DNA of 22,135 bases, from the UHGV virus genome UHGV-0094927. One strand, given 5' to 3'. The DNA is from a virus. Below, piece by piece: positions 6,453 through 8,846 of the stretch. The notes beneath the pieces were generated by a model. It searched no databases and was not told the DNA's origin. It saw only the letters and a program-made list of their open reading frames with translations. Position 1 is the stretch's first letter; every line of letters starts with the position of its first letter. Made by a program: the position numbers and the translations under genes.

Positions 6453-8846
6453 CTATTCTGACAACGCATCAGACTTGGAACCCTGAATCAGGGCGTTAAT
6501 GGCCTTTTGTGCCTGCTGCATGGCTTTCTCGAACGCTGTTGATCCGCGTGGGGTGTTTGCCATTCGGAGCATTGCATTTCTGAATGGATCGCTCTCATAG
6601 GCGCGAGTAAGAAGTCCGTAGCTTACTGCTGCGCCAGTTGTTGCAGGGTTCATTGCCGTCCCATACCCGATAATGAACGGGATAGTTTGCTGCCCTGTTG
6701 GTGTTGTTACTGCCGCTTTTGCTGCCTGCTGAGTGGACTGAAGGTAATTTTTCAATCCTTTCAGATAAGCAGCGTCCTGCCCCTTAAATGTGATGCCAGT
6801 CTGGTTTTGCAGGATGTTAAGCTGCCGAAGGAACTGGTCAGGGGAACCACCTGATTTCTCCATCGCCTTTCCAATGATGCCATTGCGCATTTGCGCCCTG
6901 CCAACACGACCAACTGAGTTATACAGAGTCTTAATTTCCGATTTGTTCTTGCTGAATAGCATGTTGTTGACAACTTCCGGCGTCAGATCGCCTTTCATGA
7001 GAACATTCTTCAGCCTGGTATTCTTTAGTTTCGCTGCTTCGTCAGCATAGACGGCATTGGCCTGCTGATATTTACGGAGAGTATCGTTGCCAAGATTCTG
7101 ACCAATGGCGCCATTGATATCGTCGGTCATTGCCTTGTAAACGCGCTGAATGGCAGCATCGGAACGGTTTGGTAACACTGGTCGTTCCCCCTTCACGTCC
7201 ATTCTGAACTGGCTGCGCAGATCGCTTAATTGCTTCAAATCCAGATTTACCGGACCATCAGGACCAGCATTGCGAATAAGCTCATCACGATAGGATTGAA
7301 GTTTTGAAATCGTCTCGTTATCAGCGACCTTACCAAGCTTCTGCAGGTTAGATATCTCAGTATCAATCTGCTGAATTGCTCGCACAGGCTGAATGTTTAC
7401 TCCAGCCATAGCATTCTGAACCTGCTCCAGTCGATTACCGGCAGCACGACGAATTCCTGATGTTTTCGCTTTAAGGCTGTCAATAACAACTGCCGGATCG
7501 TACTCGCCGAATTTATCAGCAAATCTCTGCACCAACTGGCTTCTCGCTTCCTGTTGCGTTGCTCTCATTCCGCTTGTGCCAGCCAGAGGGATATTTTCTG
7601 CTGTAGTCTGCGCCATTTTTCCGACGCGGGAAGTAGGTTGTAACAGGTCTGTGGTGTGCAGAGGCACTCCTTCACGCTCTGCAAACCTGATAGCCTGTTG
7701 CGCTTCTGGCGCTATCGCACCACGAACTCCACGATAAGCAGCACCTAATCCACGTCCGGCAGCGTTAATAGCTCCGCCAGCCAGAACGCCAACGCCTAAG
7801 TCGGTGGCTAGTGCTTCCGCATCATCTTTCGCACTATTTGCAGCAAGTGATCCAACTGCGTTTTCTGCTAGAAGGCGAGTTGCCCCCTGAGCAATTCGAC
7901 CAGCAAGTGTTGGTGCCTGTGTTGCCGCTCTCTCAATGCCAGCAGGAGTGAGGTAAGGCAATGCTTCAGCAAATACCATTCCCTCTGTCGTTTGTGGAGT
8001 CAGCGCGCCTTGCTTAAGGCCAAAGTCCTGCTCTAATCCCTGCGTTGTTACTCGTGGTGCTGGTTGATATGTACCATCGCCAATACCGAGTTTACCGCCA
8101 GCCCAAGCCGCCGCGCTTGTTACAGCATCAGTGAGTTCAGCAGGTATGTTCGCTACGTTGATTCCTGCCTGTAGTAAGCCGCGCCCGGTTTCAGCAAGTC
8201 CATTACCAAGGTCAGACATTATTCCGCCTTGCTGCTGAACAGGTTTCGGTGCGACAGAACTTACGGGTTGAGGTGGCTGCTGACTGGCTGCCTGCTGCTC
8301 AATCTGAGCAAATGGATTATTTGGGTCTGACTGCACGCCTGATGCCGATACTTGTTCGGATGACTGTGCTTCCAGTTGTGCAAACGGGTTGTTAGGGTCT
8401 TGCTGAGGATGTACCTTTGCAGAGGTGGCGCGCTGTTCGACTGTTGAGTCTGTCACCGGGTCACCCGCCCATTGAGCAAAGCGATCATCAACGTAACCGC
8501 GGCCTTCAGGTCCTGGCGTATATTCACCACGCTTTGCCTTCATAACGTTGCCTGGACCGTCGTGATAAGCCTGAAGAGCGTCACGCCAGTTACCAAACTG
8601 CTGGTACATCTTTGCCAGATAGCGCGCGCCAGCGTCAGCCTGATATTCGGGGTTTTGCATTTGCTCATCGGTATATCCCATATCACGCCATGTCCCAGGC
8701 ATGACCTGAGTCAATCCTACAGCCCCGGCGGAGCTTACTGCGGCAGGGTTGTAAGAAGACTCCTTGGCACCCAGTGCAGTCATCAACCCTTCTGGCACAC
8801 CGTAACGTGCGCCAGCCTGCTCTAACAAATCACGGTAATTAGCCAT
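6453..8846 (-). CDS. Ejection (DNA-transfer) protein in the gp16 position, with an N-terminal soluble lytic transglycosylase (SLT) domain
   Basis: 797 aa. N-terminus carries a family-1 lytic transglycosylase signature: GAKESSYNPAAVSSAGAVGLTQVMPGTW ... YLAKMYQQFGNW. Followed by tandem peptide repeats (DPNNPFAQ[LI]E, twice) and a long Ala/Gly/Gln-rich region. It is the last of three genes after the gp14-like gene and directly precedes the tailspike, as gene 16 does in P22. Start ATG 8846 abuts the upstream gene's stop. Confidence 0.6.
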   Translation of the reverse strand: MANYRDLLEQAGARYGVPEGLMTALGAKESSYNPAAVSSAGAVGLTQVMPGTWRDMGYTDEQMQNPEYQADAGARYLAKMYQQFGNWRDALQAYHDGPGNVMKAKRGEYTPGPEGRGYVDDRFAQWAGDPVTDSTVEQRATSAKVHPQQDPNNPFAQLEAQSSEQVSASGVQSDPNNPFAQIEQQAASQQPPQPVSSVAPKPVQQQGGIMSDLGNGLAETGRGLLQAGINVANIPAELTDAVTSAAAWAGGKLGIGDGTYQPAPRVTTQGLEQDFGLKQGALTPQTTEGMVFAEALPYLTPAGIERAATQAPTLAGRIAQGATRLLAENAVGSLAANSAKDDAEALATDLGVGVLAGGAINAAGRGLGAAYRGVRGAIAPEAQQAIRFAEREGVPLHTTDLLQPTSRVGKMAQTTAENIPLAGTSGMRATQQEARSQLVQRFADKFGEYDPAVVIDSLKAKTSGIRRAAGNRLEQVQNAMAGVNIQPVRAIQQIDTEISNLQKLGKVADNETISKLQSYRDELIRNAGPDGPVNLDLKQLSDLRSQFRMDVKGERPVLPNRSDAAIQRVYKAMTDDINGAIGQNLGNDTLRKYQQANAVYADEAAKLKNTRLKNVLMKGDLTPEVVNNMLFSKNKSEIKTLYNSVGRVGRAQMRNGIIGKAMEKSGGSPDQFLRQLNILQNQTGITFKGQDAAYLKGLKNYLQSTQQAAKAAVTTPTGQQTIPFIIGYGTAMNPATTGAAVSYGLLTRAYESDPFRNAMLRMANTPRGSTAFEKAMQQAQKAINALIQGSKSDALSE

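Follow-up and report, generated by a model that had tools for sequence, protein, structure and literature searches.

Phage P22 carries gp16 inside its virion and releases it when it infects, and family-1 lytic transglycosylases (LTs) cleave the MurNAc-GlcNAc bond non-hydrolytically to give 1,6-anhydroMurNAc. Both bear on the gene described here, which lies at positions 6453–8846 on the minus strand of UHGV virus genome UHGV-0094927 (the whole stretch of 22,135 nucleotides is referred to below as the window). This gene very probably encodes a gp16-type ('DNA transfer') protein of a P22-like Escherichia coli prophage, in which a replaceable N-terminal LT module is joined to a body of the Sf6 gp13 type and would cut murein at DNA entry. 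The replaceable module comprises a family-1 LT and a flexible linker of ~85 residues.

The design has a well-described counterpart in phage T7, where residues 1–156 of gp16 form an LT domain that is required under highly cross-linked peptidoglycan and residues 157–228 form a 'molecular tape' on gp15 subunits (PMC8954989). The ejection proteins of the P22 group have been probed by exchange between phages. SDS-PAGE indicates that the Sf6 protein in the gp16 position assembles into particles, and its ejection function is obtained only with the cognate gp20; the gp16 and gp20 proteins of P22 and Sf6 function only as cognate pairs (PMC10883804).

A lytic transglycosylase domain in the gp16 position

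The features on which the assignment rests are as follows.
6453–8846, minus strand: gp16-position ejection-protein gene, complete, 797 amino acids (aa) plus stop (open reading frame (ORF) list, translation and phrog_770)
8472–8846, minus strand: family-1 lytic transglycosylase (SLT) domain, aa 1–125 (Pfam, AlphaFold and Foldseek)
8760–8762, minus strand: codon of the predicted catalytic Glu29 in the E-S motif (alignments to Slt70 and T7 gp16)

The N-terminus of the protein is a bona fide family-1 LT with a lysozyme-like, all-alpha fold. An initial annotation made from the sequence alone had read an SLT signature in this region, and the Pfam SLT profile (PF01464) bears this out, matching aa 7–110 over profile positions 2–110 of 117 with an E-value of 2.8e-25 and a score of 88.6 bits, well above the curated gathering cutoff of 21.3 bits. 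A phmmer search against PDB sequences returned Slt70 (1qsa) first, with 'GAKESSYNP' aligned to 'ARQESAWNP' and E29-S30 placed on E478-S479. Similarly, BLASTP with the first 300 residues of T7 gp16 gives 28% identity (E = 2e-10) and sets Glu29 opposite T7 Glu37. The conserved LT motifs are all present, including E-S, G-L-x-Q as GLTQ (aa 44–47), A-Y-x-x-G as AYHDG (aa 93–97) and Y76, and the side chains E29, S30, A42, G44, Q47, Y76, Y94 and G97 form invariant columns in a 77-sequence alignment with database homologues. With its motifs intact, the domain looks catalytically competent.

Structural comparisons lead to the same assignment. The AlphaFold model of aa 1–216 has a pLDDT of 89–98 across aa 1–110, and Foldseek matches it in the PDB, with a probability of 1.00, to LtgA, Slt70, P. 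aeruginosa Slt, MltE, MltC and MltF. Foldseek also matches gp16 in the periplasmic tunnel of the T7 ejectosome (7k5c chain B), such that the comparison with T7 gp16 drawn in the initial annotation rests on a homologous LT domain. The PHROG family of the T7 gp16 type (phrog_342) matches aa 3–189 with an E-value of 1.9e-23, the match ending at profile position 216 of 1235. No SLT domain was found by Pfam or NCBIfam in P22 gp16 (609 aa), in line with the annotation, or in Sf6 gp13 (665 aa).

The remainder of the protein, aa 108–797, matches the 'DNA transfer protein' family phrog_770 with an E-value of 7.5e-239 in the PHROG profile search. The initial annotation gave the gene as larger than P22 gp16 and in the gp16 position, both of which hold; it omitted the strand. 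A plus-strand reading of 6453–8846 was rejected as it yields stops only, and the gene is a single ATG-to-stop ORF on the minus strand. Its start codon (8846–8844) directly adjoins the stop codon of gene 20 ('...cagTAAATGgct'). The partner genes are as follows.
8847–10178, minus strand: gp20 homologue, 443 aa, ejection-protein partner (Pfam Inj_translocase, E = 7.9e-68; phrog_2534)
10188–10880, minus strand: gp7 homologue, 230 aa, ejection protein (Pfam P22_gp7, E = 1.8e-134; protein comparison)

Together, ORF order and the Pfam and PHROG matches make the 797-aa gene the third of a gp7-gp20-gp16 cluster upstream of the tailspike gene. The late operon on the minus strand comprises the small and large terminase, portal, scaffold, coat, gp4 (Pfam P22_Tail-4) and gp10, followed by a needle with an Sf6-type knob, gp14 (DUF2824), gp7, gp20, the 797-aa gene and a tailspike with a P22 head-binding domain (Pfam). 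Downstream, on the plus strand, are gtrA, gtrB, a gtrC-like gene and an integrase. The gene therefore occupies the gp16 position of a Lederbergvirus-type (P22-like) prophage. The same arrangement recurs in other phages, as SLT-gp16 fusions stand at this operon position in Sf101, Skarpretter, IME279, IME_EC2, Lumpael and Kc259.

By analogy with P22 and Sf6 gp16, the protein would be packaged in the head alongside gp7 and gp20 and, following tailspike-mediated adsorption, expelled through the portal/tail channel into the periplasm. There, the SLT domain would refold and cut MurNAc-GlcNAc bonds locally, opening the murein net such that a gp7/gp20/gp16 trans-envelope conduit can assemble; such a role has been demonstrated by experiment for the LT domain of T7 gp16, and this precedent suggests that the cleavage would matter most with highly cross-linked walls. 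The C-terminal body may then engage the inner membrane for DNA passage, as proposed by comparison with P22 gp16. The N-terminal module (N-module) and the C-terminal half of gp20 appear to be adapted to each other, as described below.

Several points weigh against this proposal. Experimental proof of virion presence, ejection or enzymatic activity was not found in the literature searched. Both P22 and Sf6 infect without an SLT domain on gp16, and the domain is thus dispensable in principle. The muralytic function may also be redundant, since P22 gp4 is reported to be a virion muralytic protein, or virion-associated lysin (PMC5380687), and a gp4 homologue is also present in the window prophage. 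Finally, the integrase gene (window 50–936, plus strand) is broken into overlapping ORFs at 50–682 and 643–936 that correspond to the two halves of Pfam Phage_integrase. This split indicates a frameshift, i.e. a pseudogene or a sequencing error; therefore this copy of the prophage may be unable to excise and may never produce virions.

The frameshifted integrase is also a reason to ask whether the 797-aa ORF is itself an artefact, either a gene fusion created by assembly or frameshift or a remnant of a decaying prophage, and some related prophages do carry truncated copies (569, 576 and 343 aa) and deletion scars. This explanation is hardly credible, and is effectively refuted by the recurrence of an intact ORF of the same length in the isolated phage IME10, in 52 complete genomes and on many independent contigs, with the exact sequence found on 15 contigs. 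An action of the SLT domain when infection ends, either as an auxiliary endolysin or against the wall of the lysogen itself, would draw on the occurrence of SLT domains in phage lysis enzymes and on a partial match to the 'endolysin' family phrog_669 (E = 1.4e-23). It is very unlikely, as the domain is translationally fused to an ejection body inside a virion-assembly operon, abutting gp20, and four or more genera conserve this fusion at the same place in the operon. Furthermore, the protein has neither a signal sequence nor a holin context, and the T7 precedent is an entry function (PMC8954989). The lysis genes of the prophage lie outside the window. It is also quite improbable that the domain lacks catalytic function and leaves murein uncut, serving the conduit only as a structural or peptidoglycan-binding 'wing', because the Glu-Ser pair and G44, Q47, Y76, Y94 and G97 are all retained, and the LT residues persist in homologues at 46–63% identity, as selection on catalysis predicts. 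Murein cleavage at DNA entry remains the preferred reading.

Mosaic ancestry of genes 16 and 20

The segments that differ in ancestry or composition are as follows.
8171–8229, minus strand: recombination junction zone between the Sf101-type head and the Sf6-type body, gene nucleotides (nt) 618–676, aa 206–226 (sliding identity and megablast)
6453–8170, minus strand: Sf6 gp13-type ejection-protein body, aa 226–797 (megablast and per-block identity)
7677–7859, minus strand: A/G-rich low-entropy segment, aa ~330–390 (entropy scan)
8847–9641, minus strand: C-terminal half of gp20, aa ~180–443, co-inherited with the gp16 N-module (identity comparison and IMG/VR co-divergence)

Nucleotide and protein comparisons indicate that the gene is a chimera of an Sf101-type head and an Sf6-type body. 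In a megablast search of 50,697 phage records, full-length matches were limited to phage IME10 (96.9% nt identity), an E. coli O26 phage fragment and Klebsiella phage phiKp_30. Nucleotides 1–618 of the gene match Sf101, Dewey, Huey and APC_JM3.2 at 99%, while nt 676–2394 match Sf6, 683R2 and VSe13 at 94–96% (95.1% for Sf6 gene 13). Sliding nucleotide identity to Sf101 stays at ~99% until nt ~600 and then falls to 30–50%, whereas identity to Sf6 stays below 50% up to nt ~600 and is 90% or higher beyond nt ~720. The protein sequences agree with this division. Residues 1–206 are identical to Sf101 gp13 (911 aa), the body of which is only ~20% identical, and aa 226–797 share 92–100% identity per 40-aa block with Sf6 gp13, compared with ~35% for P22 gp16. 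No exact match to the junction sequence was found in species-representative genomes. A profile scan of the same genomes detected the Sf101-type module only in the E. coli and Shigella flexneri representatives, together with many SLT matches in Rhodobacterales.

The initial annotation had described the part of the protein beyond the motifs as Ala/Gly/Gln-rich and largely low-complexity. The protein as a whole contains A 14%, G 10% and Q 9%, but the second description is overstated, as its Shannon entropy is 3.98 bits, against 3.97 bits for gp20. Entropy falls below 3.0 bits (30-aa windows) only at aa ~171–210, in the Q/P/S linker, and at aa ~330–390, in the A/G-rich segment; the other ~500 residues form an unremarkable body of the Sf6 gp13 type with high conservation. 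The A/G-rich segment is a candidate membrane-active region, a suggestion based on the membrane association of P22 gp16 (summarised in PMC10883804).

The mosaic extends into gene 20. While aa 1–~160 of the window gp20 are ~100% identical to Sf6 gp12, its C-terminal half is ~30% identical to Sf6 gp12 and 98% identical to Sf101 gp12. The Sf101-type segment thus runs from gp20 aa ~180 to gp16 aa 206 (~1.4 kb) within an otherwise Sf6-like ejection cluster. The gp7 protein is 99–100% identical to Sf6/Sf101 gp11. Relative to P22, identity is 83% for gp7, 35% for gp20 and 26% for gp16, in keeping with the earlier description of the ejection set as mosaic.

The C-terminal half of gp20 and the N-module of gp16 appear to travel together. 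In loci from IMG/VR, the identities of the last 250 aa of gp20 and of the gp16 N-module are 100/100, 94/88, 96/90, 76/74 and 77/74%, while in the same loci the N-terminus of gp20 shows 45–100% identity and the gp16 bodies fall into the Sf6 type, the Sf101 type or another. In the phage collection, an Sf101-type gp20 C-half occurs in six phages, and precisely these six are the complete phage genomes that have the Sf101-type SLT head. Among complete E. coli genomes, 66 of the 71 matches carry both parts. Three low-coverage records were listed, namely PSJ-23, a deletion-scarred prophage, and FDN-9 and YJR, which are partial matches. Neither the phage collection nor a check of E. coli PSJ-23 yielded an intact genome in which an Sf101-type gp20 C-half occurs apart from the SLT head. 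In the P22-like prophage of PSJ-23 (NZ_AP027637 2817122–2825929), gene 16 is 5'-truncated and the 3' part of gene 20 abuts early-region genes (ssb, anti-RecBCD).

Inheritance of the gp20 C-half and the gp16 N-module together, while their flanks reassort, suggests a co-adapted unit. This is a lead only, as the co-inheritance is confounded by the physical adjacency of the two parts and by the small number of independent recombination events. A co-adapted unit fits the requirement for cognate gp16/gp20 pairs in P22 and Sf6 (PMC10883804). The co-inheritance is also compatible with a contact like that of the gp15/gp16 tape in T7.

A paired motif in the linker

The linker that follows the SLT domain carries two copies of an N-x-F-[A/D]-Q-Φ motif.
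8220–8471, minus strand: Q/P/S-rich linker, aa 126–209, bearing both motif copies (AlphaFold and composition)
8370–8399, minus strand: motif copy 1, DPNNPFAQLE, aa 150–159 (sequence reading)
8298–8327, minus strand: motif copy 2, DPNNPFAQIE, aa 174–183 (sequence reading)

The linker is composed of 19% Q, 13% P, 12% A and 12% S and is predicted by AlphaFold with a pLDDT of 55–71, with low-confidence short helices at aa 154–168 and 178–187, one starting at each motif. The two DPNNPFAQ[LI]E copies had been noticed in the initial annotation, at 8298–8333 and 8371–8406 (36-nt ranges), and were attributed to an old duplication under selection, a view that the present analysis supports. The copies are 24 codons apart and identical at 9 of 10 residues, while the synonymous codons of seven of the nine identical residues differ at the third position, with only GAC and TTT in common. 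Such a self-match exceeds chance, as 30 shuffles of the protein reached at most 7/10. The 90-nt repeat units share 51% nucleotide identity and Tandem Repeats Finder reports no DNA-level tandem repeat in the gene; the repeat exists at the protein level alone. Because the residues are kept, the codons differ and shuffling fails to reproduce the match, the pair probably goes back to an old duplication that selection at the peptide level has preserved.

Conservation of the pair was surveyed in an IMG/VR sample of 71 loci with 49 distinct N-termini. No complete Sf101-type N-module in this sample has lost either copy, even where identity falls to 72%; in one of these loci (L064) the copies read DPDNPFAQIE and DPSNPFAQIE. 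Furthermore, N153, F155 and Q157 are invariant columns in six SLT-gp16 proteins of four genera. The Murray-, Sortsne- and Skarprettervirus proteins contain the core motif twice, in linkers that otherwise cannot be aligned. One copy lies at the extreme N-terminus (MANIFDQFDQ, MANFFDQFDQ or MANVFDQFDQ, and MANPFAQFAD in Kc259) and the other follows the SLT domain (GGNVFDQFGDY, SGNFFDQFDE or DSNNPFAQFSD). As judged from these sequences, the motif pair is not private to the Sf101-type lineage and crosses genera, beyond the labels given in databases.

Two further N-terminal arrangements were observed among the IMG/VR loci. The proteins of L077–L082, with SLT domains 46–54% identical, are without NxFAQ and have instead a tandem 'GPWEKYQS'/'GPWSNYQS' before the SLT domain, within the first 30 codons (consensus of the paired copies, 'GPW-x-[KN]-YQS'), which is possibly an analogous paired aromatic motif. 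Locus L059 4001–6661 (IMG/VR UViG_3300013354_000001) encodes an 886-aa variant with an Sf6-like body and an extra segment of ~100 aa or more ('...GNIDIHNRPVVKNPDGSISTVRSMS...GKHLGIFDNPDDATAYAERLH...') directly after motif copy 2. This segment has no Pfam match. The N-terminus of gp16 seems to be a hot spot for module addition.

The two linker motifs are most simply read as short docking elements. It is conceivable, as a tentative proposal, that the paired motifs flanking the SLT domain serve to dock the gp16 N-module and the gp20 C-half to each other, as the P22-like counterpart of the 'molecular tape' of T7 gp16. If so, a ~1.4-kb cassette of the gp20 C-half and the gp16 N-module would set gp16/gp20 compatibility, and docking would explain both why the cassette is unsplit in the sampled phages despite reassortment of its flanks and why P22 and Sf6 require cognate pairs. 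The analogy to the T7 tape is weak. In a MAFFT alignment, itself weak, motif 1 stands opposite T7 'LETFGGI' (aa 154–160), at the border of LT and tape, with one invariant Phe. A second T7 gp16 candidate, 'PFAKDF' (aa 204–210), was rejected as a coincidence since it aligns opposite neither copy. No match to gp20 was found in a search of PDB sequences.

The alternative, which concerns the repeats only, is that the DPNNPFAQ pair has no specific function and is a neutral remnant of duplication within the linker. Their position in a low-confidence, compositionally biased linker and the lack of a demonstrated partner would both fit a relic. This explanation is nevertheless rather doubtful, as synonymous sites are saturated and yet the residues are kept, as both copies persist in modules that have diverged to 72%, and as the core occurs twice in the Murray-, Sortsne- and Skarprettervirus proteins despite the unalignable linkers. 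The motif pair and the unsplit cassette offer a testable handle on the gp16-gp20 contact that is implied by genetics yet unmapped.

Occurrence, naming and comparison with known systems

The SLT-gp16 protein is already deposited and correctly named, and it represents a known design, the virion-borne LT on a podovirus ejection protein. NCBI lists the identical 797-aa protein under the name 'lytic transglycosylase domain-containing protein [Escherichia coli]' (e.g. EFN4865894.1), and the protein falls in a 90%-identity cluster of 1295 members, some of them from Salmonella enterica. Among 5426 complete E. coli genomes, part of the gene is matched in 363, and 52 have at least 80% of it, under the PGAP name 'lytic transglycosylase domain-containing protein'; the intact ORF is also found in ~27 IMG/VR contigs. 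Sf101 gp13 is annotated as 'transglycosylase' or 'lytic tail fiber protein'. The ~1000-aa proteins in the gp16 position of Skarpretter, IME279, IME_EC2, Lumpael and Kc259 all contain Pfam SLT and are labelled 'transglycosylase', 'lytic transglycosylase' or 'DNA transfer protein'. A functional discussion of the transglycosylase in P22-like, Sf101 or Skarpretter phages was not found in the openly accessible literature.

Database names mislead in both directions. The RefSeq and GenBank records of IME10, with 27 annotated features, have no CDS over gene 16 (NC_019501 31064–33457). Conversely, SLT-less Sf6-type 665-aa gp16 proteins carry the name 'lytic transglycosylase domain-containing protein', examples being VSe13_013 (L005 2722–4719), protein P0132 and a protein of E. 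coli D7 (L007 3462–5285), and some SLT-less Sf6-type gp16 records are flagged as pseudogenes 'missing N-terminus'. This label appears to have been transferred from SLT-bearing relatives, because Pfam and NCBIfam detect no SLT in those proteins. The possibility of a hidden, diverged SLT in Sf6 gp13 or VSe13 gp13 was rejected on the same searches.

The surroundings of the gene show further differences among related prophages. A 596-aa membrane protein without a Pfam match lies after gtrA/gtrB in the gtrC position (2562–4352, plus strand), and the tailspike (4495–6288, minus strand) joins a P22 head-binding domain to a beta-helix receptor domain (PHROG 7173). The combination of serotype conversion and tailspike may be uncommon, because coverage of the window does not exceed 73% in any complete E. 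coli genome. The tail needle (gp26 homologue, 282 aa; 11338–12186, minus strand) has an Sf6-type C-terminal knob (Pfam Phage_tail_NK, E = 3.4e-117), while the needle gene of IME10 is shorter (233 aa, 702 nt) although its ejection genes are common to the window prophage.

What the present analysis adds is modest, consisting of the map of the Sf101/Sf6 chimera, the cross-genus motif pair and the unsplit gp20-C/gp16-N cassette. The generalisation that gp16 lacks SLT in the P22-like group holds for P22, Sf6, HK620 and CUS-3 and not for the whole group, as SLT-bearing gp16 is present in a sizeable subset of Lederbergvirus prophages and in several sister genera. Importantly, near-isogenic natural pairs exist in which an Sf6-type body occurs with an SLT head (IME10, the window prophage) or without one (Sf6, Gally). 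With the tractable genetics of the P22 group, these pairs are a ready system in which to ask what a virion-borne muralytic domain adds to DNA entry. The small conserved motif may be worth testing; the rest of the SLT-gp16 design is ordinary and shared with many related phages.

Among the known systems, gene 16 of IME10 encodes the same 797-aa mosaic (96.9% nt and 98.5% aa identity) with no material difference. Sf101 gp13 shares the operon position and residues 1–206, comprising the SLT domain, the linker and both motifs, at 100% identity, and the gp20 encoded upstream of it is 98% identical. In contrast, its body past residue ~207 is of a different type (~20% identity), consisting of a P22-like stretch followed by a longer C-terminus. 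The likeness to Sf6 lies in the gp13 body, gp7, the N-terminal part of gp20 and the 164-bp gap between gene 16 and the tailspike gene (6289–6452 in the window); Sf6 gp13, however, has a 75-aa non-enzymatic N-terminus without SLT, and Sf6 has another gp20 C-half. P22 gp16 shares the operon position and the body family (26% identity overall, and 30–50% per 40-aa block over most of the body), but is 609 aa long and lacks the SLT domain. P22 also has sieA and mnt-arc-ant (immI) between gene 16 and the tailspike gene, which are absent in the window.

The proteins of Murrayvirus (IME_EC2, Lumpael), Sortsnevirus (IME279), Skarprettervirus and Kosakonia phage Kc259 resemble the window protein in their SLT domains (55–63% identical), gp16 position and two motif copies. 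They differ in length (977–1047 aa), in an SLT domain that begins at about aa 34 and in bodies that are ~27–30% identical. Furthermore, one of their motif copies is N-terminal (MANxFDQFDQ type) and one follows the SLT domain, whereas both follow it in the window protein. T7 gp16 (internal virion protein D, 1318 aa) is likewise the largest of the ejection proteins and has a family-1 LT at its N-terminus, with an extended non-globular stretch behind it, but its remaining ~1100 aa are not homologous to the window body, which belongs to phrog_770. By this comparison, the N-module probably works like the N-terminus of T7 gp16, while the whole protein is no member of the phrog_342 family.

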